This document shows positions 20,558 to 39,698 of a DNA stretch of 64,000 nt, one piece after another. Positions within the stretch are counted from its first letter, which is position 1. The number at the start of each line of letters is the position of its first letter. The position numbers and the translations under genes were made by a program. Origin of the DNA: Cyanidioschyzon merolae (taxonomy: Eukaryota); NCBI GenBank assembly GCA_000091205.1, contig AP006500.2. The stretch is one strand, 5' to 3'. The notes beneath the pieces are model-generated. The model was given only the letters and a program-made list of their open reading frames with translations, was not told the DNA's origin and did not search any database.

Positions 20558-21941
20558 CTGCGGCTGTGCCAGATTGAAATGCGAAACTGCATTGCTTGCT
20601 CGGTTCTTTTCCGTCGTTTTCTCGCCCAGCCTCACGCGGTGTACATCCGCTACATTCGAAGCGGAGCAACAGCGGCTTACGAATGCACGCGTCGGTTCAG
20701 GATCCGGAGTCGTCTTGTCCGAGTGGCTCCTTGGACGCGTCACCGTTCCATTTCCGCATGCCATCGGAATCGAGATAGCTCGCGATGCCCCTGGAAACCA
20801 ATTCCAAAATTAACCGATACCATTCCCGAGTTCATACAATGAAGCTTCGAGCCTGCTCCTCTCGTTACGTTTTGCATGCTCAAATCACACACGCTCCAAG
20901 TATTCGATTTCTCTGTTTCAAGGTCGCTCGTGGGCGGAGCATGTGGCGCTCCGGCACCGACCACGAAAGAGAATCGGTGTCATCTGCTTGGCAGCTTGTT
21001 GACCAGCGTATACCGCAAATTCAGTCAACCTGTAACGTCAAATGAGAGAGATCGAATGCGTTCGAAAGACAGGTTCTCGCTTTTCTGTGGTCGTCGTCTA
21101 CGCGGGATTCTACAGTACCATGACGCCTCTGACAGCGTATGCTCCAGGATGCTCCAGTCGGTTGCGCTTGCCCGCAAGAGGTTTTCTGAGTCAGACCTGA
21201 CTCATCTACGGGATCGCATCCAGTGGAGCGTGTGGCATCGCTTTGCATGAGGCGAGCGTTGTCGGACGGGAGTCTCTCGACCTGTTCCCTGGTCTGGCGT
21301 CGCCTTCGAGGCCTTGGTGCATCATGGAAAACATCGCGCTCCACGAACCCGCTATCGAGTGGACCAGCGTGCGCTTCCACGCCCAGCAGACAGCGTCCTC
21401 GACGCTGGGAGCGCCCTGAGGAAGCCCCTGATCGTAGAGTACGGCACGAGACGCAGAGACGCGAGGCGGGTATCGAGGATAGCCTGCAGTGCCTGCCACG
21501 AGCGTGTACCGTGCGATGACGCAAGCGTTGACGCGCCACAGGGCAGCCTTCTCATGAAGACGTGTGGTCTGCATATCGTTAGACCTGAACGCAGCCACGT
21601 GTCGTCTCTGCGAAGGGCGTCTCCAGGTTGTCTGGCGAAAGGATGAGAGTGGCAAGCGAAACGTCGATCACAACTTTTGCCAGTGCACGGCATGCGTTGA
21701 CAACAATCGGCAGCTACGACACCGGGATTTGAACACCACCACCTATATCCATCGACTGCTATCGACGGAGCTGGCGGCAAAGGGGAGACCAGCGTGTTTA
21801 CACCCGCAGATTCGAGGAAACACAGGGAAACATTCTTGGGGAAAGAGGCCACAAACGCTGGTGCGCATAGGAATAGGACGAAACGAAAACCTCGGTGCGT
21901 ACGTCTTTATCAGTGGATCTGTTCTATCTGGTACTGGCGTG
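20558..21941. repeat. 1.38-kb direct repeat, copy A (copy B at 38315-39698, about 98-99% identical)
   Basis: Track ORFs are pairwise near-identical at a constant offset of 17757 nt (20876..21250 vs 38633..38992; 21021..21539 vs 38778..39296; 21564.. vs 39321..). Boundaries read at ctgcggctgtgccagattgaaatg and ...tggtactggcgtgaa. Flanks differ. No recognisable protein inside. Confidence 0.85.
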
Positions 21942-22276
21942 AATGCCAGGCCACCGCGCGGCACCTCCATTCCCTACACTGAGGCATACAAGCACGTCGC
22001 TTTGGGCGTGCTGAAGTCCGCTCTTCCCTGTCTCTTGGAAACAATGTTGCTCCGGGGTATTCTGGTTCCATGTATTGATCATCCATCAATAACAAAGCAG
22101 GTTTCCTGGTGATGCGCCTTCCACTACACCAAACCGGACAGTGCTCGCGTACAGTGTGCCACCTGAATGAACGCGAAAAGCTGGACCCCCTAGATATCGT
22201 TGGATGCACGAATCTCGCCCCTGCCTTTGCCAGCAAGTCTCGACCGGAGCCCATAGTGAATGGAAATTTCCGGAGT

Positions 22277-22302
22277 GTTGTTGTTGTTGTTGTTGTTGTT
22301 GT
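22277..22302. repeat. (GTT)8 microsatellite
   Basis: Direct reading: gttgttgttgttgttgttgttgtt. Confidence 0.85.
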
Positions 22303-22745
22303 CTGCTTCCAAGCTGTCCACAGCAACTGCGCATCCGGGTTGATCCAGTTTCCATGTATCCATCGTATGCCATTCAGAGCGTATCCTGGAGGCAGCGCGT
22401 GTCGGTCTCGGTCGTTTCAGTGCAGCGGCGTCCCGCCTCGGGGCGCTGGAGTCCCTTTCGTGCTTCGAGATCGACGCGTCTTATCACATGCATCCGGATG
22501 CAGCTATGGCGCCCACATCTAGAAAACGCAACGTCGTTTCACTCTAGACGCTTCTGAGATCCGCCGCCAGCTCCTGTTCAGAAGACTCCTATCTGACTGA
22601 GGCTCGATGGATGCAGCGACCCGCCGGTTGGCGAACTTCCCACGAGCGCCTGCTGCGATGCTGCTTGCGCCAACACTGCCACTGTTGGCGTACGGCGATG
22701 CACTGCGCTAATCCACGCTTCCTCGGGAGACGAATCATGCAACTT

Positions 22746-24467
22746 TCACGCTTCTTCACAGACGAGACGAAACTTTGCGAATACATAGGGGTAATGTGCC
22801 TGATACCAGTTCCGGAATGTCGAGCGAACGAGTGGAGTGCCCGTCGCCCACGAAGCCCCTTTGAGGACAAAATGCTTATCATCAAAAAAATCCGCCGAAT
22901 ATTCCGGATACAGCGGTGAAGGCTGGAAACGCTCTCGGTCCAGCGGCTCAAAGAGGGACTCGGTCCACTCCCAGCCGTTGCCAACGAGGTCACAGACACC
23001 CCATCGCGAGCAGTTCGGTGATTCATAGGTGCTAATCGGGCCCCAGTGCCGGAAGCCGTAATTCCCGTCAGCCGATGACTCCGAGGACTCGTCGCTATCG
23101 AGGGCGCTGTCGGGATAGGCACCTTCAGCGAGGTGCTGCCACTCGGCCTCGGTAGGCAGCCGCCATGTCGCTGCCGGGTGTCGCTGGTTTCCGAGCGCCC
23201 CAGAGACCCAGTTGGCAAAGGCGCGGGCCTCAGCCAGCGTCACATACACAGGCCAATGGTTTTCGACACAAGCGGGTTCCCCGAGCGCGTGCTCCCCCAG
23301 TCGACCGTCGGGGTGCACCACATAGCATGCGGGCCCGCTTTGCTGCTGTCCAGAGCGGTTCAGGGCACGCCAGAACTGCGGCCACTGTCGCCCAGATCTT
23401 GCACACCACTGCCGATCGCTTTCATTCAGCCAGTAGCGATCCAGTTCACGATAGCCACCGGCCTGAACAAAATACCAGTACTGTAAGTTCGTTACGGGGT
23501 ATCTCTGCACGAGTAGCGAGCGCGGAATCTTGCGCTGTACGCGAGGCAGCTCATTATCCCAGGCAAAACGCAGGTACGGTTCAATCACCTCGTGTGGGTT
23601 GCGTCCCAGAGAGACGATGCCGTCGCTCTCGACACGCTGCGTAGCGCCAAGCGGCGGGTACGACGAGTTCTGGTCCATAGGTAAAGCGTCGGCGCTGGCG
23701 AGACTCTGCATTTGCTGTCGATATTCGGATATCCAGAACGGTCGCATACAGTAGCCGTTCAGCTGATGGAGCATGTACAGGAGGGTTTCGGTGTGCATCC
23801 ACTCGTGTTCCGCGATGGTCATCAGCAGCGTGTAGCACGAGCTTGGCGGCAGCACCTGGTCGTCGACTGACTCGCTCCAGCGCCGTAAACGATAACTCAG
23901 ATCCTGCCGAATATAGTCTCGATAGGCAGCAACCTGAAAGACTGGAGGCCACTCTTCAGCGGTACTCGGCACCTGCGAGTGCCAGTGGCAGCGCGTGGGG
24001 TCGTCTACATCCGGATCCATGCCGCGCTCGAAAAGTTTCGCGAAAGTGCTCAACATCTCGAGTGTGAGCGGGGGTTGTATGGGCAGCGCGTCTTCAGGCA
24101 GCAGTCTTGAGTTGTAGCGGTTCCAGGCGAACGCTGGCAAATGACCCATGTAAAAGAGAAACGGATGCCGCAAGTCGATTGGTTTCAATAGCAGAATCTG
24201 GGTCACAGACGTAGCTGGGAAGGTTCCAAAGACAGCGTCTACCTGCTTCCAAGCTTCTGTTAGTGAAGCTAGAGCCGCCTCAATAGCGCGACGCTCTGAA
24301 AATAGCTTTCCCGTCTCGAGGGCGTGTTCCGAGTCAACGACGGGCAGACGCCCAACGCCCGAGAAAGGATTGAGCGGACGCCAGCCTCGCAACAGTGCTG
24401 GACGTGTCGTAGCGTCAAGCGTCCCGTCCAGTAGCGGCTCGTGAACTGCAGCAGTTGAATTCAGCAT
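22746..24467 (-). CDS. DinB-like + FGE-sulfatase domain protein, EgtB/OvoA-type sulfoxide synthase-like
   Basis: N-terminal DinB-like region (FLFYMGHLPAFAWNRY, metal-binding-like HEWMHTETLLYMLHQL). C-terminal FGE-sulfatase-type signature GNGWEWTESLFEP...FFDDKHFVLKGASWATGTPLVRSTFRNWYQAHYPYVFAKFRLV. Track start 24557 is GTG; first ATG is 24467. Family assignment is from memory of motif patterns and was not searched. Confidence 0.55.
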   Translation of the reverse strand: MLNSTAAVHEPLLDGTLDATTRPALLRGWRPLNPFSGVGRLPVVDSEHALETGKLFSERRAIEAALASLTEAWKQVDAVFGTFPATSVTQILLLKPIDLRHPFLFYMGHLPAFAWNRYNSRLLPEDALPIQPPLTLEMLSTFAKLFERGMDPDVDDPTRCHWHSQVPSTAEEWPPVFQVAAYRDYIRQDLSYRLRRWSESVDDQVLPPSSCYTLLMTIAEHEWMHTETLLYMLHQLNGYCMRPFWISEYRQQMQSLASADALPMDQNSSYPPLGATQRVESDGIVSLGRNPHEVIEPYLRFAWDNELPRVQRKIPRSLLVQRYPVTNLQYWYFVQAGGYRELDRYWLNESDRQWCARSGRQWPQFWRALNRSGQQQSGPACYVVHPDGRLGEHALGEPACVENHWPVYVTLAEARAFANWVSGALGNQRHPAATWRLPTEAEWQHLAEGAYPDSALDSDESSESSADGNYGFRHWGPISTYESPNCSRWGVCDLVGNGWEWTESLFEPLDRERFQPSPLYPEYSADFFDDKHFVLKGASWATGTPLVRSTFRNWYQAHYPYVFAKFRLVCEEA

Positions 24468-25314
24468 GGATAACCAAGAGTGGCCACCTGAAGCCGTGCC
24501 CAGCGATACGCACCGCACAGAATAGCAAAAAAGCTCCTCTGCTGCTTTTGGACGCACGAACGCTCGACTGGAGCAACGGCGGGCGCGCCCCCGTGGCGAT
24601 ATGTGCTCGTCGTGCGCAAGCGCCCGGCGACTACAGGCGACAGAAACGTGTGCGCTTGCGTTTCTAGGGAATGTTGCGCTTCGGGATATCGCTCAAGGAT
24701 GTGATGTGTCGACCAGTAGGATGGAAAGGGAGTGTCGAAGAAGCGCCAGCTTCGCCCGGCCGGAGATTCGCTTTACCGTTATGCATCGCAACACGAGTAC
24801 TCTATACGCTTGAGATCCTTCTTCTCGAATGAGAGGAGAGAGCGCTTCCACCGCTAATCCCAGCACTGCCACCATCCGAGCAGCGAGGTATCTGTGCAGT
24901 TCTCGATGCACCAGAGCGTCTGCCTGCACCCAAAGCGTGATGATCATAGCTCGCACTGAACAGCGCACAATGCACAGAATTCCGCCAAGTGATCCTGAAC
25001 ATGGCATTCGAGCTGCCTTTTCCAAGTCCAAGTGACGGCTTACATGCACGCACACGTAGGGTGACGCGTTTATCCGCCGCTCGCTCTCATGTATTCCAAT
25101 GAGAACACGACCACAGGATGCGCCATTCGGCCAGGGGTGGCTTTTCCATAAAACACCGCCGTCACACACAGTTCTTACCGCGACTCGACGCCTCAGCACC
25201 AACTAAGGCACTGTACCAGCCGAGCCGATAGCCACGAACAGTGAGCGGCAGACGTTTGTACAGCGCCTGCTCTGGGGTAGCGCCGCTCTGCACAGGCCGG
25301 CGAGGAAGCCCCAC

Positions 25315-25770
25315 TCATGCCGCTCCCGCAAGTCGCTCAGCGTAGATACGAGCAGCCTGTGTGTCCAGGTCCTGTCTCCCTTTCCGTGTGATGACGCGAC
25401 CGCCCGCTTCCTCGTCTCTAGCTACGAGTCCAAGCCTCTCCAGTTCTTGAAGACAATATCGGATAATTCCGCGCGACCCTGTGGCAAAATGAGACGGTCG
25501 CGGACCGTTCCTCTTCTTACCCCCGTACTTGCGGCTGTACGCTCCGACACCAAGATTTTGCCGCAAGTAAACCTGGCGCGCAAGAGCCGCCATTCGAACG
25601 TAGAGCCAGTCTCGATCTTGCGGTGGCATCTCACGCAGGGTACCCGTTTTCACGACGTCCATCCATTCCGGTTCGCGAACTTGACCCTGCTGTTTGAGGT
25701 GCGCTGCATAGGATCGAATCAGATGATCAGCTGGCACGTCTTTCAAGGTAATGCCAGACCTGGGCGCCAT
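25315..25770 (-). CDS. RPS19: 40S ribosomal protein S19e
   Basis: MAPRSGITLKDVPADHLIRSYAAHLKQQGQVREPEWMDVVKTGTLREMPPQDRDWLYVRMAALARQVYL...GGKKRNGPRPSHFATGSRGIIRYCLQELERLGLV matches eukaryotic S19e end to end. Track start 25776 is GTG; ATG is 25770. Confidence 0.9.
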   Translation of the reverse strand: MAPRSGITLKDVPADHLIRSYAAHLKQQGQVREPEWMDVVKTGTLREMPPQDRDWLYVRMAALARQVYLRQNLGVGAYSRKYGGKKRNGPRPSHFATGSRGIIRYCLQELERLGLVARDEEAGGRVITRKGRQDLDTQAARIYAERLAGAA

Positions 25771-26507
25771 CACCACTCCACAGTCCGCTCGTTCGTCAGC
25801 GAAGAATACGGCTTGATCGCTGTGCTCGAGTGCGGGCCCTGTCGCATGACGGCGTCGACGGCAAGGTCAATCCTGTACGTTTACGGTATATCATGGACAA
25901 AATAGACACTCTGGTGCGACGCCTCCGAGGCTCGCCATGGCAGGCGTTTCGTGCAGCGCCTGCGCAGCGTCACCCTGCTGTCTGGCAACGACATGGGAAA
26001 TGCTTAGCGCCCAAAAACTCTGGCCTACCCGCCGGGCTTCTCCGGTATGTCGTTCGGCATCGCCAGTCGCAGGCCTGTTGATGCCGTTTCTAAGAGCGGC
26101 GGGATGTGCAGACGCATTGCGGTCCGGTGCGTACCGGCTCAAATGCGCATCGAGCCGACGCTTCCGATTACGGGGCGGGGCACTCGCCTGAACTGCGGCC
26201 ACTGCAGCGTATCTCGCGCCGCCGCGAAGCGCATATAGCAGACCTGGTATCCCTTCGGTCTCTGATTATATTTACGTCAACGTCTGCACGGAATATGACC
26301 CTGGGATACGCCGACTATGATCGCGTCTGTCGGGTAGCCGCGGTCGCTTGTGCTGCTCGAACTACCGGGCAGTTCCTACTGCACCCCTGTCAGTATAAAT
26401 GGAAGAGGTCCTGTAGTATGAGCGGAAACTTTCAATTTTGGGTCACGTATCAATGTCATCAGTACGAGTCTCTGTGAGCTTTTTCCGTGACTGTGTCTTT
26501 TCCTCTT

Positions 26508-26909
26508 TCAAATCTCCGGTTCTATATCCGGCGATCCCTCGACCTCCTCCAGCTCCAGTATCAGCAGGCGAAGGATGCAGGCTTTGACGTTCAAATCCTG
26601 CTTTCGCCACTTGCAGCAGTTGTCGATGCTCTGGATGCCCAGACGCTGGTTGCGATCTACGCTTTGCACGCCATTCTCTTCCTCTAGGTTTACAGCATCG
26701 GTGCGCTCTTCGCAAGGGTGGCACTTGGCTCTGGTCCGCTGTTGCCATACGTCCAGCACACCTTCTCCGGACGCTGTCCTGTGGCTTGTGAACGCTTGCT
26801 CCATCGCTCGATCTATGGCCTTGACGCGAATAGAAAAGTCGTCTCGATGCCGTGCACTGGTTCCGTGCCCAGTGCCGTACCGGCGGATCATGGGGTTCTT
26901 GTTCGCCAT
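26508..26909 (-). CDS. hypothetical small protein (133 aa)
   Basis: ATG-initiated ORF in the 2.2-kb space between divergent RPS19e and RPL21e. No recognised motif. Could be spurious. Confidence 0.25.
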   Translation of the reverse strand: MANKNPMIRRYGTGHGTSARHRDDFSIRVKAIDRAMEQAFTSHRTASGEGVLDVWQQRTRAKCHPCEERTDAVNLEEENGVQSVDRNQRLGIQSIDNCCKWRKQDLNVKACILRLLILELEEVEGSPDIEPEI

Positions 26910-27968
26910 CCGCTATGCAAGTACGCCGTCGGCTGCATACTCAAAGGCACGCCGTTCGATTCAGTGGAGGATTTGCGGAACGCGATGTTGTCCGTGATGA
27001 AACAAATGCCGAAAAGAATATTCAGAATGGAGTACATGTCTGGAAATTTCTAACCGTCTTCGCTCCCTTCATACAAAGCCTTGACGCACGTTCCGCTAGA
27101 AGCAATCATCATGATGACTCGCATCCGAGTCCAGGACCCTTTTCCATGCAAACAGAAGAGACGATATCCTCTGGTGCGCATCTTAGGGGAAGCATCATGC
27201 TGTCGATGACGCCAGTTTCGTCGATAGCCACAAGAAGAACAGGAGGGCTTGTCTTTCGAACGAAATCTATCAATAATTCGACATCCCAAGTTCATGGAAT
27301 GCTTGGCATATGCTGGTGAACAAGTCGTCATCGGACGACAATCGAGTATTTTCTTCGTCAATGTAGCAGCGGGATCTGCTGCGCCCATCAGCTCCCCCGA
27401 AATACAAAGATCGGAAATTTGAAGCATGCATGGTTTCATCATTCTACACGTAAGGAAGTCAGAAGCGTGATGGCTTGTGCGTATGCACAGCGTCATGATA
27501 TGAGTTAGGCTATGAGCTCGAACTCAACGGCGTTATGCAGCATCTTGGACGACATTGACCTAACGAATTCGAGCTGCAAAGCGTCACACAAGGCACCCCT
27601 AAAAGAGAACCGAGCATCCTAGAACTTTGTATGCATCCGTAAGCCCAGAGTGCTACAGGGTGAATGTCGAGTCTGTATACCTGTAAAAAGGTTTCGAGGA
27701 AGAAACGCAAGACAGGAGTCGGGTGAGCGCTTGCGTGTCCCTTTTTCTCATCTGGAACAGATATGGACTTATCGATCCCATGCGGGGAACAGTTTGCTGC
27801 CGGACGCCGCGCCGCCCTGCAATTTGCACCAATCGGAATGTCCATGATTTCCAGGATCGACGCGGATCCGTGACGGCGCTCGCTGCGGCGTCGCTGCGCG
27901 CTGCGTCGTTCTCCGAAGGATGCCTTGCGGGAAGCGCTCTGCTGGTGCGGGACCTGGTGCAAGGGACC

Positions 27969-28457
27969 ATGGTGCGCTCACATGGACTGCGTAGTAACAC
28001 CCGCGACAAGTTCGCGAAACCGTTTCGAGGTCATGGGAAACCTTTGCCCTCCAAGTACTTGACCACCTACAAAGTCGGGGAGTACGTTGACATCGCAGCT
28101 GACTCGTCGATTCACAAGGGCATGCCGCACAAGTTCTACCACGGACGCACTGGGCGCGTGTTCGATGTAACACCGCGATCCATCGGGGTCGAGGTCAATA
28201 AGGAGGTGAACGGGCGGATCCTAGTGAAGCGCATTCACGTACGGGTTGAACACGTGCGACCGTCCCGCTGTCAGGAGGCTTTCAAGGCGCTCGTGCGAGC
28301 CCGGGACGCTGCGCGCAGAGCTGCACGAGCAGCCGGCGAGCCCAAGGTTATACACGAGAAGCGACAGCCTGCTGGCCCGCGACCTGCACGTGTCGTACAA
28401 GTGGGTGCAGGCGGTATCAAGCACCTGGAAGCAAAGCCGTATGAGTTCATCTGCTAG
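27969..28457 (+). CDS. RPL21: 60S ribosomal protein L21e
   Basis: MVRSHGLRSNTRDKFAKPFRGHGKPLPSKYLTTYKVGEYVDIAADSSIHKGMPHKFYHGRTGRVFDVTPRSIGVEVNKEVNGRILVKRIHVRVEHVRPSRC...KPYEFI matches eukaryotic L21e over its full length. Track ORF 27723.. carries a spurious upstream extension; ATG verified at 27969. Confidence 0.9.
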   Translation: MVRSHGLRSNTRDKFAKPFRGHGKPLPSKYLTTYKVGEYVDIAADSSIHKGMPHKFYHGRTGRVFDVTPRSIGVEVNKEVNGRILVKRIHVRVEHVRPSRCQEAFKALVRARDAARRAARAAGEPKVIHEKRQPAGPRPARVVQVGAGGIKHLEAKPYEFIC

Positions 28458-29243
28458 ACGTCGTGCTTGCAACCTGGCACCGCACCGGTGGCCGTGCACA
28501 CCGCTCAAGTCAACTACACTTGTGCGTTTTCTAAAGAGTAAGCGGCAGCTTGAGTATGCGCGAAACGGCAAGTCTGTGCTCGAGAACGAATCGATGACGA
28601 AGCGCAGACCTCATCCAAACGGACTCTTGGTCGTATATTTCGCAGGTAAACGATGATCATCGCATCTTGGTCCAGTATCGTTGTGCATTTCCAAAACGAA
28701 ATAGGTCGTGCCGGGCTCTTCTGCAACAGCTCACGATCCCAAAGTCGTCGTCTGCTTGCGCTAGCATAAAACGATACGCGACGCTTGGAAGACTCGCTCC
28801 CAGTGGGCACTGGAAGCGCTCCACAGGTGCCGCGACAACATCTATCCACCGCTTGCTGTTCTGGGACGCCATACGCACCGGTTACGTACCTCGAGCTTGC
28901 ATTCGTCCGAGAACCTCGATATCTCTCTGTACAACTGGACGCTTGCTCCCTACTTGCATGCAAGCAACCAGTGCTTGTGCAGCACCGCCAGCCGGAGCAT
29001 TCATGCACCCTGCGTATCGACTCGAGGCACTGGGAGCAAGCCTGCCAGCCAGCGAGCAAGCAGTCGAGAGACTGGGATTTTCTCGCATCGCAGATCGACT
29101 CATGGAACAGGTATTCTTCGGATGCGCCAATGCTGGCGACAGGCAGGGAAGCAACCAACCTACTTTCACAGACGCTTTTGGGTTGCACTGAACCAGGACT
29201 AGTCCTCGCATCGAGGACAGAGGTTCCATAGATCCAGCGACAG

Positions 29244-29286
29244 CCGCAGATCATTGGCGCTCCCACCGAGCGCCAATGATCTGCGG
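29244..29286. promoter_or_regulatory. perfect 19-bp inverted repeat (5-nt loop) containing paired CCAAT/ATTGG boxes, ~100 bp upstream of the cytochrome b5 gene
   Basis: ccgcagatcattggcgctc-ccacc-gagcgccaatgatctgcgg. The arms were checked as exact reverse complements. Confidence 0.5.
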
Positions 29287-30639: not shown

Positions 30640-32235
30640 TCACAGCGCTCGTTGAATATATCGCTTGGAACCGAGGCGACCTCGTTTCTCTCGCATTCGG
30701 CGGTTCGAAAACCACCAACAGATTTGCTTGCGAGTGAGTCCTGTACTGTTGACTAACTGCTCACGCTCTGCTGCTGATGGATAGATGCTGACGCATTCGT
30801 AATGCTGGATGAGGATAGCTTCAGCGTGTCGCGAGAGTTTGTGGCGCTCGCTACCAACCATGCCCGTCCCAGAGCCCGTGCTCAGCTGCTCCATCAGAAA
30901 CCCCTCACCGTAGCGAGCAAGTACCGTCCTGAAGAACGCACGAGCAGTACGCGATCTGGTTGGCGGGATCGTCAGCTGCTGCTGCTGCGCGAGATCCTTC
31001 TGATCAACAGATTCTGAGATCTGGGATGCTACGCTTGAGCGCTCATCATCCAAGCCGGGAGCTTCCCGCGGAGTGCACAGCTCCACAGCCGACGATGGAA
31101 GCGCTTTCGAAAGCGGCCGCCGGAGGATTCCTTGCTCCGGGTTGCGAGCATTGAATTCCGTTGCATGGATGCCCCCGAGATACCCCGTACGATTTGCAGC
31201 AGATGTGGCTCCAGCGGGTAGACGCTGTACCGCGGACCCATGGAAGCATGCATCCGTAGTGCCAAGCGCTCCCCGATAGACATCGCACACGTCTTCATAC
31301 CAGAACGATTCTCCGTCGTTGGCAGCGTCTCCGAAAGCTTCGACATGCCACGGCAACGGTATCCGTAAACCAAGCGCTGCTCCAGATGCTGCTACCGCGT
31401 TTCGATCGCTTCGGCGTGCAGCATCCGAGGAGTCGGCCGTCTCAACAAAGCGCTGTGTCGATGCACTGAGATGCTCCGTCACGACTGGCATCGAAGACGT
31501 AGAACAATGCCCAGGCGTGCCTGTCCCTGGATCGTTTTCATCGCGAGCACGCGAAACGGCATATGCTCGGCAAGCACGCTCGTGCATCTGGAGAAGACAC
31601 TGGCAGCAGGACTCGAACTTGAGTCGGAAACGAATCAGCTGTTGCAAGGCGGTAACGAGTTCAACCAGTGCACCGGAGACGTGCACAGACGCCAACGGGA
31701 CATGCTCGCTGCATTGCTGGAGTTGCTGGAGCAGTAAACAGGTGGCCTCTCGCGGCTCGCAAGTCGCCAAGGAAGCGAGCGCCCGTAGCATTCGACGAGG
31801 AAGCGTACCCCTGAGCAACCATTCCCGGAGGTTCTCGATGCTTGGCGTTGCCTCTGCGGCTGTTGTCCGATCGAACGACGGGACACTCAGGAGTCCACCG
31901 TTGCAAATAACGTGTTCGACGAGAGCCTCTAGTTTTTCCGCAGCTGCTTGTTGGACTCGCGCTTCACTTGACGCGGGGTGTCTGGAGTCGGCAGTCGAGT
32001 TCACTGCGCTCGGTATCGTGAGCCAGAGCAAGGCCGTCGACGCCGAGGCAGTGTCTGCCGTAGCCTGCGGGTACACGCGACACGTCGCTAGCTGCCAGAG
32101 CGTCTCTAGCCAGTTGCTCGTATCTGACGACTGTGAACGACACTGCATTTCACCGTGCCGACTAGGACGCTGGTTCCGGGTTGTCGCCCGAGAACTCAAG
32201 CGGCCACCTTGCAGAAAGTTTGGCGGAAAAGTCAT
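30640..32235 (-). CDS. TALE-class homeobox transcription factor (C-terminal atypical homeodomain)
   Basis: C-terminal LSRHAEAILIQHYECVSIYPSAAEREQLVNSTGLTRKQICWWFSNRRMREKRGR. Helix-3 WFxNRR consensus with a three-residue loop extension (IYP). ATG at 32235. The antisense ORF 31319..32449 is judged spurious. Confidence 0.65.
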   Translation of the reverse strand: MTFPPNFLQGGRLSSRATTRNQRPSRHGEMQCRSQSSDTSNWLETLWQLATCRVYPQATADTASASTALLWLTIPSAVNSTADSRHPASSEARVQQAAAEKLEALVEHVICNGGLLSVPSFDRTTAAEATPSIENLREWLLRGTLPRRMLRALASLATCEPREATCLLLQQLQQCSEHVPLASVHVSGALVELVTALQQLIRFRLKFESCCQCLLQMHERACRAYAVSRARDENDPGTGTPGHCSTSSMPVVTEHLSASTQRFVETADSSDAARRSDRNAVAASGAALGLRIPLPWHVEAFGDAANDGESFWYEDVCDVYRGALGTTDACFHGSAVQRLPAGATSAANRTGYLGGIHATEFNARNPEQGILRRPLSKALPSSAVELCTPREAPGLDDERSSVASQISESVDQKDLAQQQQLTIPPTRSRTARAFFRTVLARYGEGFLMEQLSTGSGTGMVGSERHKLSRHAEAILIQHYECVSIYPSAAEREQLVNSTGLTRKQICWWFSNRRMREKRGRLGSKRYIQRAL

Positions 32236-32979
32236 TTCCGAGTATTCGTACCTTGGGCCGCTTCCACACGCCTCGTTCAGGTTCTATCAAGTCTTTGGTG
32301 AGATCCTTCTCCTCTACATAGCGTTCGGGCTGTGCGGTTACGAGGTTCGGGGTCGGTCGGTTTTTCGGTTTTGTGTCGAACGCAGCGTTGCGTTGACCGG
32401 GGCGGGTCAGCGGTCGAACGCTTGCTTGACCAACCTGACGTATCGGTGAAGTTGCTCGCGAGTGCGCTCATGTATTTACCAACTTGCTTGCCTCTATTAT
32501 GACAAAATCATAACTTGCTTGCTTGCTTGCACGCTACTCGAGCGCAAACACTATGACAGCGTTTTCGCTGCCTCTACCGCGAACCGCCCCCGCGACTGGC
32601 AGTACGCTTTTGCGTCCACGAACGGACCCAGTCAGTCAGCGAACAAGAACTTCGCCTCGTCATATGCGGGTCTAGGTATCGTTTCGCTTCATGGACCAGC
32701 TGTTCGAGTAGGTCTTTCAGCGAGTCTGGTGCCCACGAGAATCGCCATCCAGATGAACCGCAACAACTGCGGTTCCAAAGTGCGCAGCACCCTCAGCATA
32801 CGCTGAAACCCAGGTACTGCCCGGGCATGGTGTACCTGATGCGGCTCACCAGTGTGTTTCCTGGACTCGGGAGCCCGTCGACGATGCCCACGCCTCCTCG
32901 CGAAAGCGTCAAAAGCGAAAGCGGACATGGACGAGCCGCAACGCCAACACTGTTTACAACGCGAATGCTCGCAGAGCTT

Positions 32980-33942
32980 CTATCGCCGGCCGTGCCATGA
33001 GCGTTTTCGAAAGTTGATAAACCAGTTAGATACTTGTTTCACAGACACACCAGTCTGGGCACTCAACTGAACCTTCACCGCGTCACTTGGGTACGGGTGA
33101 TCCCAGTGCGCTCTGGCCCAGGCTTCGAATACAGCAACGGCATGCTTCGGAAGCGGGGTTCTTCGGCGCGAGCTCGCCCGAGCAGGTTCTTGCGAGAGCG
33201 CTGCTCTCAGCGGAGTCGTTTGATCACCGGATATCGAACGATTCGCATAAGCGTCTCGTCTCAGTATATGTGTGGTCGGAGTCGGTCGTCCCGAGGCAGG
33301 GCACGCACATGTCGATGACGGGCATGCCGTGCTCCGATGCACTCCAGCGGCACGCGGAGATTCCCAGCAAGGAACGCCTTCGTGGAGCACACTGGTGCCC
33401 GCACAGATACGTAGGCGCTCGATCGGCAATGCCCTGGGCAGTGGTGTCGTTTCCGCAGTCCCGAGGCGCCCAGTCGAGCGTCCGTCGAAACCGTTGCGAC
33501 TGGGCTCGACCGCAGAGCTTGAAGCTGCGCCCGCCGAGAAGCATGGACGCAGTCGGCCGCGTTGAATGGAGACAACATCAGCCTCATGGGCGGAGTGTTT
33601 GCATTCGGTGAGGTTCTGGCCTGCAAGTGCCGACTCCCCAGCTTCGTAACAGATCACATCGCGCTGAAAGTCATCCGAGTTTGCTGACCCGGGCGCAGAG
33701 CACAATGCTCGCTCACCAAGAAACAGGAGCGCAGCCTCGACATGAGCGTCGCCGTCATCGTCGAATGCACCACCTGTTCCCGCGTGCTCGACATGGCTCG
33801 GCGCTTGCCAGTCACAGACCTCGCTTTCTCTGGACGAAAAACGCAGACCGGGCTGCGCTGGAGCAGATGTTACAGATCCTGCTACTTGATTCGAATCCCA
33901 TTTCCGCGGTATGTCTTCCGACTTTCTCGTCTTGTAGGTCAT
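32980..33942 (-). CDS. TALE-class homeobox transcription factor (KNOX/BELL-like)
   Basis: LPKHAVAVFEAWARAHWDHPYPSDAVKVQLSAQTGVSVKQVSNWFINFRKRSW. Classic TALE homeodomain with P-Y-P loop extension and WFINxR helix 3. Track start 34035 is GTG; first ATG is 33942. Confidence 0.75.
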   Translation of the reverse strand: MTYKTRKSEDIPRKWDSNQVAGSVTSAPAQPGLRFSSRESEVCDWQAPSHVEHAGTGGAFDDDGDAHVEAALLFLGERALCSAPGSANSDDFQRDVICYEAGESALAGQNLTECKHSAHEADVVSIQRGRLRPCFSAGAASSSAVEPSRNGFDGRSTGRLGTAETTPLPRALPIERLRICAGTSVLHEGVPCWESPRAAGVHRSTACPSSTCACPASGRPTPTTHILRRDAYANRSISGDQTTPLRAALSQEPARASSRRRTPLPKHAVAVFEAWARAHWDHPYPSDAVKVQLSAQTGVSVKQVSNWFINFRKRSWHGRR

Positions 33943-34454
33943 GAGGGTTTCGCTTGACCAGCGCTTGACGGCAGCAGTCAAGTTGACTACTGAGTTGACC
34001 ACTCCGTCTGCGGGTGAGCGCTGTCGACCATGCACTAACCACCACCATCATCATCATCATGATCATAATTGCTCTGGGATGACGTCGTTTTCATGATGAC
34101 CAGTTCACAACCCTTGCCCGAATCCCTTCTCCTGCTCGCAGCGGCTACCAGGGCATACCCCCAGCGGCATCCACACAGCCGCTGCAGCAGGCGCTCCAGC
34201 TGATCCGCGCGACCCGCGTACGGAGGGCGCCAAGCGCGCGTGCATGACGACCGTTCCGCGGGCCACGCTGACGGGCGCGATCGATGCGCCGCGGCGATCG
34301 GACGCGAACGCTATAGGCGAGTGGAATATTCATCCATAATTGTTCTATAATGTTCTAGTTTCTTGATTGGCGAATCACGCCCTGGAGCGCGGACGCTGCA
34401 CTGCGGATGATGCCGCTTGCCGCACCAGCGTGCGCTGCAGGCTCCTATCCGAGG

Positions 34455-34479
34455 TGTGCGTGCGTGCGTGCGTGCGTGC
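34455..34479. repeat. (TGCG)~6 tetranucleotide microsatellite
   Basis: Direct reading: gtgtgcgtgcgtgcgtgcgtgcgtgcc. Confidence 0.8.
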
Positions 34480-35175
34480 CTATATACAGGGACACGTGTC
34501 CCGTAGAGGCATACGTGTCCGAATGGCGATTCTTCGAAGCGTCACGCATGCGGCAATAGCGGGTGCGTTTCGCCTCTGAGAACGTTCCGCTACGTCTCCC
34601 AGCGTACTTGTCAGTGCAGCGTATACCTCGTGCGTCTTCGATATTCAGAACTGCACGCATACGCATGCGTCGTCGTGCGCACAGAACCTGCACGTCGACG
34701 GAAACAAAATGCATAGGATGGAATGCCCTGCTCACGGTCGCTTTGATGGGCTGTCTTCGGGCCACCAGGCGTCATCAGCAGCAGAGCGATCTCATGGTCA
34801 TCGGGCGGGTGCTGTAGGCATGCACTCGAGCAACCAGTACTGACCTGGTACCCGCGATTGCCAGTCTCCCGAGCATCTGCAAGCGCATTATACTACACGT
34901 GTCCTGGTCTGCGATCTGCGCAGGTCGGGCCCCGGGTCCCAGAGCACGAGGTCGTGAGATCAATGCACTCGCTCACGGAAGCTTCAGAAAATGATGGATA
35001 GCGGCTTGAACATGTTTGGGGAAACCGCGCGAAACAGCAAGAGATGCCCGGCGAGCACATATACGCAGAACTGGACGAGAGCATTCCTGATTCGCAAGGG
35101 CATCCCTAGGGGTGCGCGCACACCGTCCCGTACCACGCGCTGGGGCTTGCCGGTCTCGAGGACGCATCCTGCCCG

Positions 35176-37116
35176 CTAGACCTCTGAGCTGGGGTTCGTT
35201 GTCGTTGACGTTGCAGGGCACGCAACTGTACGAGCGGACTCCAATTGTCTTGCAAGCTCTTCTAGCTGCTCATGAAAGATGCCCTTCATATCAGCGATAT
35301 CTTCGCGCAGTTCCTGGACGAGCTCCTCTTTCTCCCCGAGCAGCTCGAGAAGGGCCTGCTCGCGTTCATGCATCCGCCGGATTTCATCGTCCAGACGCTT
35401 CACTTGGGCAGCCTGTGATTCAAGTTTCTCGTTAAGTTGTGCCATCTCGCTCGTCAAGTTCTGAATAATGTCTTCGCGTCGCATAAGTTCCGTTTGGAGA
35501 CTGCGAATCACATTCGCGCGGTGACGCAGGTGCGACTGAACTTCCGTCCACTGCACGAGGTTTGGTAGCGAGCCCGAAAGCAGCAACTCTCCAGCACTTA
35601 CTGAAGAGCCAGGCGTACTGTGCCTTTCGTCCACTGCGTCCTCGGGCGCGGAAACGTTGTCAAGTGTTTCCCCTGCCACCAACGAGGCCGTTGGTGTGTC
35701 GCGAACTGTCTGCACTGCCGACGCTTCACCAGGTTGCATTTGCGATGCTGTCGGAACGGCTTCGCAGAGAGAGGGCGTCGTCATCAGCTGCCTGCGTTCG
35801 ATTTGAAGCCTTCTCCGCAAGCCGCCCAAAGCGTGGGCGGTTTCTCGTGCCTCAGACTCATAAGCACGCTGAAGCCGCAACCAGTCTTCTCGAAAAGTGA
35901 AGAGGGTCCTGCGTAGCTGAGCGCAACACGTGCGGATCTGGCTGAGCACTTTTGCCGCAGCGACGCGCTGTTCGCGTAGCGTCGACCCCAAGGCGACAAA
36001 GTCACGGAGTTTCCATTCGAGCTCGCGTGCACGTGTGTCGAGTCGCGTATGCTCTTCGAGTAATGCCGCTCGGGCTACATTTGCTGCCTCCAGTTCTGCT
36101 CGGATCTGGAGAACCTGCTGTTCGAGCCGCTCTTGGATGGTCGCTTCGCCGGCACTACGCTGACGGAGTTGTTCGTGCAGTACCTGAATTTGTCGCATGA
36201 GTGGTTTCGTCGCCTCGGAGACGCTCCTGGAGAGCTCTTCATTCTGTTGTTCCAACTCAGACACATGCGCACGAGCTTGTGCGACTTCCTCGCGCCACTG
36301 ACGCTCTCGCCGCCCCTGTTCCTGCTGTGTTCGCTCGAGGAGAGCCTTCACATGTTCGAGCTGGGACTGCAGAACTTCGAGCCGATCCCTGTACTCACTC
36401 TTGGCTATTTCAAGCTGTTCCTGCGCTTTCATGGCCAGACGCCTAGTCAGGCTTCGCAGCTCGGCCTCGTGTTCGTCGCGGAGCTCGTGAAGTCTAGTCT
36501 CTAGCGTCTGCAGCTCAGACCGCTGGACGTGTTCCTGCTCGCAATGCTTTCGTTGCTCTTCTGCTTGTTTCAACTGCGCCAGTTGTGCCTGGAGACGAGC
36601 CTGGCATTCCTGAACGCGCTCTTCCTCCTTTCGCAGCTGGAGTGCAGTGCTATTCGCTCGGCTACGCTCCGAGTCGACAAGACGTTCGAGTTCACGTATA
36701 CGTTTTCTCTGGGCTTGTACTTGCTGATCTCGTTCGTAAACGAGCTTGGATAGACGCTGCGCTTCCTGATATAGCTCCTGTGCGTTCTCTGCGGCCTCCA
36801 AAGAAGGGCGTGGACTCGGGAGCCGCCCCGGTCCGACCTGCGAACCGTAGCTGCCCGCTCCAGAGTCACGCTCCTTTGCATCAGTTCGCGGACTGTGGCC
36901 TTCTTCAGCACCGGTCGCAGCAAGAACGTGCGCTCTTGAAGCATCATCGGTCTCGCTGCGCAGCGTTTTCGAGTCGAACGAAGCGCCAGAATCCTGCTCA
37001 TGGGACGCTTCCGGTGAACGTCCACGCACCTCTGCGGTTGCAGACAACGCGGGTTCCGTTATCTCGGGCGCAGCAACGTCTTCCCATTCCTCCTCGTCAG
37101 CAACTGCTCGTCGCAT
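35176..37116 (-). CDS. long coiled-coil protein (golgin/TMF-like), acidic N-terminus
   Basis: About 450 aa of heptad-rich sequence with a strong E/Q/R/L bias (RIRELERLVDSERSRANSTALQLRKEEERVQECQARLQAQLAQLKQAEEQRK...) and a C-terminal coiled coil. Track start 37149 is TTG; first ATG is 37116. Confidence 0.6.
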   Translation of the reverse strand: MRRAVADEEEWEDVAAPEITEPALSATAEVRGRSPEASHEQDSGASFDSKTLRSETDDASRAHVLAATGAEEGHSPRTDAKERDSGAGSYGSQVGPGRLPSPRPSLEAAENAQELYQEAQRLSKLVYERDQQVQAQRKRIRELERLVDSERSRANSTALQLRKEEERVQECQARLQAQLAQLKQAEEQRKHCEQEHVQRSELQTLETRLHELRDEHEAELRSLTRRLAMKAQEQLEIAKSEYRDRLEVLQSQLEHVKALLERTQQEQGRRERQWREEVAQARAHVSELEQQNEELSRSVSEATKPLMRQIQVLHEQLRQRSAGEATIQERLEQQVLQIRAELEAANVARAALLEEHTRLDTRARELEWKLRDFVALGSTLREQRVAAAKVLSQIRTCCAQLRRTLFTFREDWLRLQRAYESEARETAHALGGLRRRLQIERRQLMTTPSLCEAVPTASQMQPGEASAVQTVRDTPTASLVAGETLDNVSAPEDAVDERHSTPGSSVSAGELLLSGSLPNLVQWTEVQSHLRHRANVIRSLQTELMRREDIIQNLTSEMAQLNEKLESQAAQVKRLDDEIRRMHEREQALLELLGEKEELVQELREDIADMKGIFHEQLEELARQLESARTVACPATSTTTNPSSEV

Positions 37117-38314
37117 CCAGCAGGTGGCCCAACGCTGAACTAGAACCAATAAACTCTATTTGCTTCCTCCGCGAAGACGCGAACCTGTAAAGTGCTATGT
37201 GAGGATGCCAGTGCGCACTGGCACTTGCAGACAGCAGCGGCAACAAGCGCTGCTTCTCCTGGTTCAGTTGACTCCCGAACGCGGTGCCATGTGCATAGTA
37301 CAGAGGTATCAAGGTTTGAGCCATCATGGTGAAGCTCAACGGGTCTTTTTAAAATACGACCTGAGCAAATCTTGATCGAAGAAAACTTGCCGAATATACG
37401 CAACCCGCATCAACACCGTATGCGTAGACACTCCGTGGTTACGGGTACACAAAATCAAGTCTCGGAAAAGTCATCGGAGCATTTTGAGGCGGTCTGCTGG
37501 GTACAAGTCGAGGCAGACGCAACCTGCATTGCCGAAGTTTGACACACACGAACCAAGAATGCTCGCAGCAGTTTGTACACATCGCTTTGCAGCGAACCAT
37601 ACCGAAGCAATGGAGCTTCATCTGGAATGATTTCGTCAGCGTCTGTTGCTTCCCGATTCACCAGCAGTGGCTTTGATGCGCTAAGCAGGAAGCCAGTGCA
37701 GAGGACGATTGTGCACCAGGTTGCTTTGGACCCAACAAGAGTCCAGCATGGCCCGCGCAGTACTTGAACTCGTACGCGCGGTTGCGCAAGCATACGATGC
37801 ACTTGTCTGCAACCTGAGGAGACCTGCCAGTGTACCCTGGTCTGCAGAGGCGCGTTCGCATGCATTAGTCTCAATGCGGAAAAGAACGAACGGACACTGT
37901 TCATGGCTCGCTTGTGGACCCGTGGCCACCCAGAGAAACGACGGGGAACGAAGGCAAGCTAAGCGGGTTCCTGAGGGAGAAGCTCTCGATTCGAACGCGA
38001 GGACGTATCAAGAATTTTGGTGATTATGTTCCCGAGCCTTAAAGCGCTCATGAGAATCGTCCTCTCCTCCGAAAAGGATCGGGTTTCCACGAAATGCTTC
38101 CCCGGCAGCGTCACTGAAATCCACGCACCAGCGTCAGCAGCGAACGCGAATAATGCCACACGAACAATCCAGGCATACGGAATCAGGCAACTCGGAAACG
38201 TGTCATTCACGGCCTCGGAGATGTGGTGCTACCAGGAGGCACAAGCACAGGCAGCAACCGGAATCGTTGCAGAAGCAACAATGCCGGTACTTGCAATCAT
38301 TCCAATAGGAGTGG

Positions 38315-39698
38315 CTGCGGCTGTGCCAGATTGAAATGCGAAACTGCATTGCTTGCTCGGTTCTTTTCCGTCGTTTTCTCGCCCAGCCTCATGCGGTGTA
38401 CATCCGCTACATTCGAAGCGGAGCAACAGCGGCTTACGAATGCACGCGTCGGTTCAGGATCCGGAGTCGTCTCGTCCGAGAGGCTCCTTGGACGCGTCAC
38501 CGTTGCATTTCCGCATGCCATCGGAATCGAGATAGCTCGCGATGCCGCTGGAAACCAATTCCAAAATTAACCGATACCATTCCCGAGTTCATACAATGAA
38601 GCTTCGAGCCTGCCCCTCTCGTTACGTTTAGCATGCTCAAATCACACACGCTCCAAGTATTCGATTTCTCTGTTTCAAGGTCGCTCGTGGGCGGAGCATG
38701 TGGCGCTCCGGCACCGACCACGAAAGAGAATCGGTGTCATCTGCTTGGCAGCTTGTTGACCAGCGTATACCGCAAATTCAGTCAACCTGTAACGTCAAAT
38801 GAGAGAGATCGAATGTGTTCGAAAGACAGGTTCTCGCTTTTCTGTGGTCGTCGTCTACGCGGGATTCTACAGTACCATGACGCCTCTGACAGCGTATGCT
38901 CCAGGATGCTCCAGTCGGTTGCGCTTGCCCGCAAGAGGGTTTCTGAGTCAGACCTGACTCATCTACGGGATCGCATCCAGTGGAGCGTGTAGCATCGCTT
39001 TGCATGAGGCGAGCGTTGTCGGACGGGAGTCTCTCGACCTGTTCCCTGGTCTGGCGTCGCCTTCGAGGCCTTGGTGCATCATGGAAAACATCGCGCTCCA
39101 CGAACCCGCTATCGAGTGGACCAGCGTGCGCTTCCACGCCCAGCAGACAGCGTCCTCGACGCTGGGAGCGCCCTGAGGAAGCCCCTGATCGTAGAGTACG
39201 GCACGAGACGCAGAGACGCGAGGCGGGTATCGAGGATAGCCTGCAGTGCCTGCCACGAGCGTGTACCGAGCGATGACGCAAGCGTTGACGCGCCACAGGG
39301 CAGCCTTCTCATGAAGACGTGTGGTCTGCATATCGTTAGACCTGAACGCAGCCACGTGTCGTCTCTGCGAAGGGCGTCTCCAGGTTGTCTGGCGAAAGGA
39401 TGAGAGTGGCAGGCGAAACGTCGATCACAACTTTTGCCAGTGCACGGCATGCGTTGACAACAATCGGCAGCTACGACACCGGGATTTGAACACCACCACC
39501 TATATCCATCGACTGCTATCGACGGAGCTGGCGGCAAAGGGGAGACCAGCGTGTTTACACCCGGAGATTCGAGGAAACACAGGGAAACATTCTTGGGGAA
39601 AGAGGCCACAAACGCTGGTGCGCATAAGAATAGGACGAAACGAAAACCTCGGTGCGTACGTCTTTATCAGTGGATCTGTTCTATCTGGTACTGGCGTG
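38315..39698. repeat. 1.38-kb direct repeat, copy B (see copy A at 20558-21941)
   Basis: See copy A. Constant 17757-nt offset and near-identical ORF translations. Confidence 0.85.

Follow-up and report, generated by a model that had tools for sequence, protein, structure and literature searches.

The window, the whole 64,000-nt stretch of DNA analysed here, is assigned to chromosome 18 of Cyanidioschyzon merolae 10D, eleven of its proteins having exact matches among 10D proteins (BAM82399 and BAM82401-82408). It carries two long direct repeats, copies A and B, with a block of host genes between them:

20558..21943, plus strand: copy A of the 1386-bp repeat (alignment, edges and full-length match to the family HMM)
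38315..39700, plus strand: copy B of the 1386-bp repeat (alignment, edges and full-length match to the family HMM)
21944..38314, 16371 bp, no strand: enclosed host-gene block, outside the element (Pfam; exact matches BAM82401-82407)

A direct repeat pair and the genes between its copies

A and B differ by 14 mismatches and no indels over 1386 bp (98.99% identity, +/+ orientation, offset 17757 nt), a similarity far beyond chance; shuffled and unrelated window segments gave zero long matches, even under the most permissive scoring. An earlier note on this DNA had described near-identical, same-orientation repeats with different flanks, and this is confirmed; the pair is real, but its true length is 2 bp greater than had been noted. 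Agreement between the two copies runs at 49-50 matches per 50 inside the repeat; at either edge a few bases suffice to bring it down to 7-19 per 50, as for random sequence, and comparison of the flanks found them mutually unrelated. Copy A lies between a small conserved gene (18830-19264), to which BAM82400 is best assigned, and the 3' end of a FGE-sulfatase-like gene; copy B lies in the divergent intergenic region between a TMF-like gene (minus strand) and a Mn-SOD gene (plus strand). Neither copy holds an annotated CDS, and protein accessions run consecutively on both sides.

By Pfam, the enclosed block encodes an FGE-sulfatase/EgtB-like protein, RPS19e, RPL21e, cytochrome b5, a homeobox and a BEL1-related homeobox protein (two TALE genes) and a TMF-type coiled-coil protein. 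The two adjacent TALE genes prompted the idea of a mating-type locus with switching repeats, which was rejected, since the mating-type region lies elsewhere and gene order is kept without repeats in sister genera. The 'K' in CMK locus tags, which under the genome-project naming convention we take to stand for chromosome 11, places the candidate mating-type region there, and with the window on chromosome 18 the enclosed block is not that region. The candidate region of Cz. merolae has been put between CMK076C and CMK078C, and homothallic switching is described as not observed (PMC13353863).

The repeat and its reality are direct observations. Each of the four flank/repeat junctions recurs among numerous independent contigs from JGI, ENA and Logan that are 99.0-99.6% identical to the window (both copy B junctions in L001-L005), and two long contigs (L002+L011 and L005+L012) span both copies and the whole block. 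The possibility, raised in the earlier note, that the second copy was introduced by assembly has in its favour only the general point that assembly may create near-identical repeats by error, and it is countered by 14 differing sites, by four distinct flanks, by the recurrence of all four junctions in tens of independent metagenome assemblies from other samples and by a source genome that was finished telomere to telomere (PMC1955436); its probability is negligible and we reject it. Repeat edges are the exact stopping point of many contigs, and there are at least nine stand-alone contigs whose entire sequence is the 1386 bp. When contigs were scanned with a 25-mer from the right end, A-type and B-type flanks alone appeared, all contigs with the repeat's internal ORF bear A or B flanks, and among the contigs scanned for flank types only two copies of the young (A/B) type were found.

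An old dispersed family and its probable class

More distant relatives of A and B lie within the same window:

26437..27764, minus strand: family copy C, 58-59% identical to A, occupying most of the RPS19e/RPL21e divergent intergenic region
52725..54018, minus strand: family copy D, 55-58% identical to A, upstream of a mitochondrial-carrier gene
about 4..869, plus strand: family copy E, 54-59% identical to A, its left part beyond the window start, with homology stopping just before a La-domain (La/RRM) gene

A sixth copy, F (~1250 bp), is present at another locus (contig L069). Family membership is observed directly: in sensitive DNA searches C, D, E and F matched over ~1.3 kb at 50-59% pairwise identity, with no matches among shuffled or unrelated controls, and C, D and E are ~54-60% identical to A. 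Homology between C and D starts no more than ~5 bp from the left edge of A/B and stops ~55 bp inside the right edge, and the full-length window copies (A, B, C and D) measure 1294-1386 bp each. Conservation across the family is even, at ~50-65%, with no strongly conserved core, and all old pairs have diverged to a similar degree, as after one old burst; the family, A and B included, makes up 9.8% of the 64-kb window. Judged by sequence, A and B arose by recent duplication of a single member of this old dispersed family. Both options of the earlier note, a recent dispersed duplication and a multi-copy element, therefore hold in part, the family being old and dispersed and the duplicate young, with no more than two copies of its type found.

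Single copies gave no Pfam match in six frames, every copy seen lacks an intact ORF, 3-base (codon) periodicity is absent from the repeat, and tblastx between copies scored alike in all frames, with no frame preference. The minus-strand 172-aa ORF has 23 protein variants inside one species-level cluster; the repeat ORF has no protein relatives outside its own cluster, and exact look-ups of the window's own 172-aa proteins found no record. Synonymous changes make up 8 of the 16 variable sites in the frame of this ORF, a mild excess that we treat as chance because eight frames were tested. A protein-coding gene was accordingly rejected on the Pfam, relative, frame and periodicity results, the 8:8 ratio of synonymous to non-synonymous changes being too weak. 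A structured RNA was also rejected: searches of the repeat gave no Rfam match at gathering or E<=1 thresholds and no tRNA, and folding z-scores of +0.85 and +1.70 place its stability not above that of shuffles.

Combining copies gave a different picture. Matches to PF13358 (DDE_3) and NF033545 (IS630) were obtained only with consensus sequences that we built from few (five or six) copies, and never with single copies. A four-copy consensus matched PF13358 at E=7e-4 (19.9 bits) and NF033545 at E=6e-4 (19.3 bits), in the same frame. With six copies, the match to PF13358 reached E=5e-6 and 26.9 bits (28.4 bits for a frame-corrected composite, against a curated cutoff of 28.6), and that to NCBIfam NF033545 reached E=1e-8 and 35 bits over profile positions 48-238 of 299, against a curated cutoff of 100. 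Such rising scores with added family members are expected of true homology, and the matches, which lie below the curated cutoffs, are strongly suggestive of a DDE_3/IS630-type transposase core in the family consensus, with the motif series AIDETG ... IMDNIAFHKS ... YSP..NP. The best conserved family block in copy A, at 21313-21376, reads CIMENIALHEP (from ancestral IMDNIAFHK). Frame 1 of the consensus also matched PF07282 (zinc ribbon and RuvC-III, Cas12f1-like TNB, TnpB/Fanzor) at E=0.002 and 18.7 bits, against a cutoff of 26.3, with no NCBIfam match; PDB searches with the consensus peptide and a five-sequence profile returned nothing useful. The candidate parts of the element in copy A are as follows:

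21080..21400 (approximate), plus strand: relic of the DDE_3/IS630 catalytic core (consensus matches to PF13358 and NF033545)
20561..20578, plus strand: left degenerate TIR, CGGCTGTGCCAGATTGAA, element positions 4-21, 14/18 match to the right TIR
21922..21939, plus strand: right degenerate TIR, TTCTATCTGGTACTGGCG, positions 5-22 from the right end, 14/18 match to the left TIR

The two TIRs of A are complementary at 14 of 18 symmetric positions, a weak match that 23 of 2000 shuffles equalled (p about 0.01), and a repeat search found no long inverted repeat in the element. The earlier statement that the repeat has no recognisable protein or TIR stands for a single copy, but probably not at the level of the family, with its probable consensus transposase relic and putative degenerate inverted repeats. 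Neither a TA nor any other clean target-site duplication (TSD) was found at A or B, where the flanks read ...CAT before and TGC... after copy A, and ...TGG before and CAG... after copy B; the dinucleotide adjoining the inferred TIRs is TG on both sides, and old copies C, D and F have a TA close to their left end, where the alignment is uncertain. The inferred TIRs start 3-4 nt inside the A/B identity block, and the copied segment thus seems slightly larger than TIR-to-TIR, unlike the product of a clean transposase reaction.

With decayed, non-autonomous IS630/Tc1-mariner (ITm) elements the family shares a unit of ~1.3-1.4 kb (copies of 1294-1386 bp, and F, fall within the about 1.1-2.4 kb of that class), a probable DDE_3/IS630 core in the consensus, putative short degenerate inverted ends, intergenic dispersal and even divergence. 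It differs from them in having no TA duplication at A/B, no intact ORF in any copy seen, scores just or well below the cutoffs, and 3-4 nt copied beyond each inferred TIR. An LTR retrotransposon would likewise have a pair of long, nearly identical sequences in direct orientation, separated by a few to tens of kb, but here, as the earlier note had it, there is no LTR structure: the repeat ends CTGCGG... / ...GCGTGAA lack TG..CA and a TSD of 4-6 bp, and between the copies lie host genes in ancestral order, not gag/pol. No element of this class was reported from the C. merolae genome (PMC1955436). A Helitron, with 5'-TC and 3'-CTRR termini and insertion between A and T, was rejected: the base before copy B is G, the base after it is C, and the 3' end reads TGAA; in all, no LTR, Helitron or MITE-type ends were found at the repeat. 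The 'WSV repeat' known from C. merolae (253 copies averaging 3.2 kb, ~5% of the genome, with a truncated WSV486-like ORF (WSSV); PMC1955436) resembles the A/B family in being interspersed in this genome without annotation as protein-coding. On the published description the two would differ, the length not fitting (units of 1.3-1.4 kb here) and a probable IS630-type relic standing against a WSV486-like ORF there. Local family density is five copies per 64 kb, compared with an average of one WSV repeat per 65 kb.

Sister lineages and the probable origin of the pair

Gene order is shared with Cyanidiococcus yangmingshanensis (L021) and with a third lineage (L022), neither of which has a flanking repeat or, on the orthologous loci, a match to the family HMM; that the repeat is missing from the corresponding intergenic intervals of both sister lineages is thus directly observed. 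With the order the same in both, that of the enclosed block is ancestral. The counterparts in Cyanidiococcus of the three intergenic regions that contain A, C and B are shorter by 1.4-2.5 kb, while the interval of the third lineage corresponding to copy C is only ~0.6 kb shorter; the family supplies 4100 of the 8103 bp (half) of the region's extra length compared with Cyanidiococcus. Element position 1250 is C in A and G in B, a paralog-specific variant common to 10D and flank-anchored metagenome contigs, and we propose from this pattern that the A/B duplication predates the split of 10D from the natural populations sampled in metagenomes. As to the parent copy of the pair, the bases beyond the right edge score equally against the old copies and give no direction.

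A and B are probably two copies of a decayed, non-coding IS630/Tc1-mariner (DDE_3) transposon, an old family member that was copied once more. The family would have dispersed in the Cyanidioschyzon lineage, into intergenic DNA, once that lineage had split from Cyanidiococcus, and the family copies would then have decayed to about 55-60% identity. One already dead member would subsequently have been copied again, in the same orientation, to a site 17.8 kb away, giving the A/B pair, now 1.0% different. We infer that this last step was trans-mobilisation or a DNA-level copy, no target-site duplication being visible; it would predate the divergence of 10D and the sampled natural populations, and those populations would have only two copies of the young type.

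An alternative interpretation is gene conversion, in which old, diverged copies sat at both sites and one was overwritten by the other, leaving 99% identity confined to the element. It is consistent with A/B identity ending near the family-unit ends, with the expansion of both sites' intergenic regions relative to sister genera, with the lack of a target-site duplication and with haplotypes that look mosaic across 25 full repeat copies. We consider it unlikely, however, because other family pairs are only 50-59% identical, a level far too low to start homologous recombination, and because a conversion tract should end within homology and have diverged fringes, whereas here 99% identity gives way to random similarity at both edges and no diverged family sequence was detected outside them; moreover, the mosaic haplotypes come from short-read contigs that are unable to phase two copies.

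It is highly improbable that the pair is instead a maintained boundary or regulatory element, or an ncRNA gene, bracketing the block under selection. Copies B, C and D (three of the five in the window) do each point to a gene that starts 640-870 bp downstream, and the mild synonymous excess in one frame could be read in the same direction, but the repeat is missing at the same positions in two sister lineages with the same gene order, family conservation is even and without a strongly conserved core, Rfam matches and excess folding stability are both lacking, and the 172-aa ORF has 23 protein variants in one species-level cluster. The pair is without demonstrable function, and its consequences are passive: it lengthens two intergenic regions, may act as a substrate for homologous recombination, unequal or intrachromosomal, and tangles short-read assemblies.

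Possible recombination between A and B

A and B form a direct pair on the same chromosome, of at least 1 kb and at least 97% identity, the definition used for a low-copy repeat pair. With the low-copy repeats behind non-allelic homologous recombination (NAHR) in human genomic disorders, and with yeast delta elements, they share direct orientation, one chromosome, a length >1 kb, 99% identity and a unique block between them; they differ in having no verified recombinant, essential ribosomal-protein genes in the block and a free-living haploid phase.

Some contigs do have a recombinant form. A B-left flank, the repeat and an A-right flank are joined in L025, L043, L049 and L051, and the reciprocal A-left flank, repeat and B-right flank in L061, L064 and L065; these contigs come from several independent samples, two of the recombinant joins (Logan contigs of 6.3 and 2.8 kb) cross both repeat edges, and direct-repeat pop-out works in 10D with other repeats (PMC13353863). 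Such contigs would fit natural populations in which A x B recombination has produced deletions of the 17.8-kb block as well as excised circles or tandem duplications of it, a reading that we regard as very unlikely. Equally unlikely is the fuller version, in which clonal or natural Cyanidioschyzon have a circular or tandem 17.8-kb block with the homeobox and BEL1-related TALE regulators and both ribosomal-protein genes, a reciprocal deletion chromosome is sheltered in diploids and the recombinant-type contigs are genuine. Parental joins (3 AA and 5 BB) and recombinant joins (4 BA and 3-4 AB) stand at ~1:1, as expected of random path choice by an assembler at a collapsed two-copy repeat; A and B are identical in both two-copy contigs, a sign of a collapsed node; L061 also jumps to unrelated sequence at a second repeat family; the deletion chromosome would be without RPS19e and RPL21e; and the finished 10D reference has the parental order. 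A lead towards a circle or tandem, taken from L025, was abandoned when reciprocal deletion-type joins turned up at similar frequency. Because both reciprocal types occur at a frequency similar to that of the parental joins, we read the recombinant joins as assembler ambiguity, which fits these contigs better than real excision.

Loss of the block should be lethal in haploids, since it contains RPS19e and RPL21e, and deletions would be counter-selected. The earlier proposal that the pair is a substrate for deletion by homologous recombination is reasonable as a mechanism, given pop-out in 10D (PMC13353863), but haploids with a deletion should not survive, and assembler ambiguity is the best account of the contigs observed. 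The A/B finding is ordinary repeat biology, with no special device around the enclosed genes.

In practice, 1.4 kb of 99% identical sequence beside commonly studied genes sets a homology trap in an organism that is engineered by homologous recombination, and short-read contigs across the locus are unreliable for linkage. The genome of 10D, a model organism noted for extreme genome simplicity, has been reported to contain 0.7% transposons, with only eight class II elements. One decayed, probably IS630/Tc1-mariner-like family occupies 9.8% of the 64-kb window and half of the extra length relative to Cyanidiococcus, in support of the idea that Cyanidioschyzon intergenic regions are longer because of old transposon relics that annotation based on proteins does not see.

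A young repeat pair in two fixed contexts

The earlier note had claimed two near-identical repeats in the same orientation with differing flanks, and exact self-comparison at an offset of 17757 nt bore out both points: copies A and B align over 1386 bases with 14 mismatches and no indels (98.99% identity), and just past either end, within a few bases, agreement drops from 49-50 matches per 50 bases to 7-19, as in random sequence.

20558-21943 (+): copy A, young type
38315-39700 (+): copy B, young type
21944-38314: enclosed block of host genes

The block holds the genes ascribed to it (FGE-sulfatase/EgtB-like, RPS19e, RPL21e, cytochrome b5, two TALE homeobox genes and a TMF-type coiled-coil gene). 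Eleven window-encoded proteins match Cyanidioschyzon merolae 10D proteins exactly (BAM82399 and BAM82401-82408), and since the accession numbers are consecutive across both repeat-bearing intervals, it appears that neither copy carries an annotated coding gene; the leftover accession, BAM82400, is compatible with a small gene (18830-19264) that has orthologs in two sister lineages. A (TTG/CAA)n microsatellite (~22240-22302) lies immediately right of copy A, and a polymorphic length is suggested by several Logan contigs of different runs, which break off at 22302 or 22296. In many metagenome contigs the ORF at 37455-38210 (-) runs to 251 aa, but in the 10D window a stop codon shortens it to 149 aa; it has no Pfam match and is probably not a real gene.

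That the pair might be an assembly artefact, one option of the earlier note, did not survive comparison with about 60 contigs from JGI, ENA and Logan assemblies, recruited by exact-protein look-ups; these are 99.0-99.6% identical to the window and therefore represent other populations of the same species. Each of the four junctions (A-left/repeat, repeat/A-right, B-left/repeat and repeat/B-right) was seen many times, many contigs have an end precisely at 20558/38315 or 21943/39700 or one k-mer inside the repeat edge, and at least nine contigs in independent metagenome and Logan assemblies (L047, L048, L055 and six similar) consist of nothing but the repeat, with a length of exactly 1386 bp. 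The repeat is therefore a true natural sequence with the same boundaries in two contexts, rather than an artefact of a single assembly. A scan of the contigs found only A-type and B-type flanks next to the right-end 25-mer, and all contigs with the internal ORF are flanked by A or B sequence; thus, the young type has two copies in the sampled populations.

An old family and its probable transposase relic

In a permissive DNA comparison, copy A also aligned with three further window sites over 0.7-1.2 kb at 58-60% identity, whereas shuffled, reversed and unrelated window segments gave no long matches; a profile search added a sixth member at an unrelated locus.

26437-27764 (-): old copy C, permissive DNA alignment to A
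52725-54018 (-): old copy D, permissive DNA alignment to A
~4-869 (+): old copy E, permissive DNA alignment to A, left part lost at the window start
L069 4628-5873: copy F, between SRP54 and Yip1 genes

Divergence is similar for every pair of old copies (50-59% identity), as would be expected after a single old amplification burst. Homology between C and D begins within ~5 bp of the A/B left edge and stops ~55 bp inside the right edge, which argues that the A/B pair copies a discrete family unit and not an arbitrary segment. Of the earlier options of a recent duplication or a multi-copy element, both hold in part: A and B are a young pair and belong to an old dispersed family, but the young type itself has only two copies.

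The absence of a recognisable protein, as first noted, holds for a single copy, which has no Pfam domain in any frame, no Rfam family, no tRNA, folding no more stable than that of shuffles, and no protein relatives beyond its own 90% cluster. Family tblastx scores are alike in all frames, 3-base periodicity is lacking and conservation is uniform with no strongly conserved core; the family is non-coding today. The family consensus, however, points to a transposase. One translated frame of the four-copy consensus matched Pfam DDE_3 (E=7e-4) and the NCBIfam IS630 transposase (E=6e-4), and the six-copy consensus matched DDE_3 at E=5e-6 (26.9 bits; 28.4 bits for a frame-corrected composite, against a cutoff of 28.6) and IS630 at E=1e-8 (35 bits, profile positions 48-238 of 299), so that the consensus seems to recover the ancestral gene. 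It contains AIDETG, IMDNIAFHKS and YSP..NP, which we take to be the hallmark DE.., DN...H and SPDLNPIE motifs of the Tc1/mariner and IS630 families, and the DN...H motif coincides with the stretch that the family conserves best (21313-21376). The claim that terminal inverted repeats are missing also needs amending, as copy A has degenerate inverted repeats placed symmetrically near its ends (14/18 matches; 23/2000 shuffles were as good).

We consider it likely, from these sequence comparisons, that the repeat is a decayed IS630/Tc1-mariner-type transposon. Because A and B have no TA target-site duplication, which defines IS630/Tc1-mariner, we file the family short of proven membership, as one that works like and very probably derives from that group. 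The ordinary explanation is thus a young two-copy pair from an old decayed class II transposon family; no earlier report of a DDE/IS630 assignment for this genome was found in the literature searched.

The old element may also have carried a TnpB/Fanzor-like gene beside the DDE transposase: positions ~1000-1190 of the six-copy consensus (copy A 21560-21750, +) translate in frame 1 as CHLCEG...CIxCVDN...RDLNAAIYI and weakly match Pfam Cas12f1-like_TNB, the TnpB zinc ribbon (E=0.002, 18.7 bits). The family HMM has a further weak match at 57330-57427.

Separately, 57100-60900 is low in GC (0.50 vs ~0.57), its GC skew is strongly negative, and its minus strand carries several broken ORFs in a row. 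At 57360-57884 (-) lies an ORF whose C-terminal end reads ...FVNRDFNAAINIRR, presumably the TnpB/Fanzor RuvC-III motif, and an upstream fragment of 16 residues was read. Pfam gave only a weak Cas12f1-like_TNB match there (E=0.014), and NCBIfam and PDB gave nothing; the region may be the remnant of a Fanzor/TnpB-type class II element. Adjoining old copy D, a nuclear gene at 55084-57045 (-) encodes a full bacterial-type sigma-70 factor (regions 1.2, 2, 3 and 4), presumably a sigma factor of the plastid RNA polymerase.

Age of the duplicate and possible recombination between its copies

Copies A and B differ by 1.0% in 10D, much like the flanking DNA between 10D and the metagenome populations (0.4-1.0%). 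Element position 1250, phasable because it lies within one k-mer of unique flanks, is C in A and G in B in both 10D and the metagenome contigs, which indicates that the duplication predates the split of these populations. At other sites, 25 full-length copies show mosaic haplotypes, and in the two contigs containing both copies these are identical to each other; since short-read contigs cannot phase a 1.4-kb repeat, we do not accept these patterns as evidence of gene conversion. That A and B end near the unit ends would favour whole-element mobilisation as the last copy step; the absent target-site duplication and the 3-4 shared bases that extend outside the inferred inverted repeats do not fit a clean transposase reaction.

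Deletion of the block by homologous recombination, raised in the earlier note, is plausible, as pop-out between direct repeats serves marker removal in 10D according to PMC13353863. Contig L025 runs from B-left flank through the repeat to A-right flank, the join that either an excised circle or a tandem duplication would produce, as do three more contigs (L043, L049 and L051, two of them from Logan), and the reciprocal deletion-type A-left/B-right join occurs in 3-4 contigs (including L061, L064 and L065). With ~8 parental crossings (3 A-to-A, 5 B-to-B) vs 7-8 recombinant (4 B-to-A, 3-4 A-to-B), the ratio is close to the 1:1 expected from random assembler paths through a collapsed repeat node, and we therefore regard the recombinant joins as assembly chimeras. 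Real A x B recombinants behind these contigs are very unlikely: two Logan contigs (2.8 and 6.3 kb) do cross both repeat edges unbranched, unexpectedly if the four junctions were equally covered, but within a second repeat family one deletion-type contig, L061, also changes to unrelated sequence, and block loss would take RPS19e and RPL21e. A modest new point is that short-read contigs across the locus are chimeric about half the time.

The second dispersed family, unrelated to the first, lies at 17838-18465 and 59752-60387 (~630 bp, 68% identity, direct orientation). Exactly within this element, L061 leaves window-like sequence and continues into an ARMT1-like gene; the switch is either a further assembly chimera or a rearrangement.

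Sister lineages, TALE genes and intergenic expansion

Gene order from POP1/AP-sigma to Fip1 is identical in Cyanidiococcus yangmingshanensis (L021) and a third cyanidiophyte lineage (L022), and these loci have neither a flanking repeat nor a family HMM match.

Lengths of the element-bearing intervals in three lineages
Interval holding A: C. merolae 3481 bp; L021 1439 bp; L022 1591 bp
Interval holding C: C. merolae 2198 bp; L021 694 bp; L022 1626 bp
Interval holding B: C. merolae 3454 bp; L021 912 bp; L022 957 bp

The adjacent TALE genes of the block (30640-32235 and 32980-33942, both -), a 'homeobox protein' and a 'BEL1-related' protein in 10D, form a tandem pair present in all three lineages. 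They evolve fast, the 531-aa protein being only 34-37% identical between genera, whereas Cyanidiococcus RPS19e shares a 90% cluster with its C. merolae counterpart. The pair led us to consider the block as a mating-type locus. By convention, CMK locus tags denote chromosome 11. According to PMC13353863, haploid-diploid transitions are controlled in other algae by the class to which these two proteins belong, but the species has its candidate mating-type region elsewhere, between CMK076C and CMK078C, and homothallic switching was not observed; we reject the mating-type reading on these grounds, and it is also opposed by the sister genera, which keep the TALE pair without the repeats.

Along the syntenic stretch, C. 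merolae exceeds Cyanidiococcus by 8103 bp, of which 4100 bp are elements A, B and C, and the five window copies total 6260 bp, or 9.8% of the window. Both figures fit the attribution, in PMC13353863, of the larger Cyanidioschyzon genome to longer intergenic regions, whereas the window share contrasts with an early genome estimate of 0.7% transposons (PMC1955436). That the family adds to intergenic expansion in Cyanidioschyzon is a second modest new point. Tandem arrays are also found at 5917-6923, 11843-12697 and 13149-13820 (units of 101, 111 and 112 bp), with internal copies 95-100% identical and GC down to 0.47 at ~12-13 kb.
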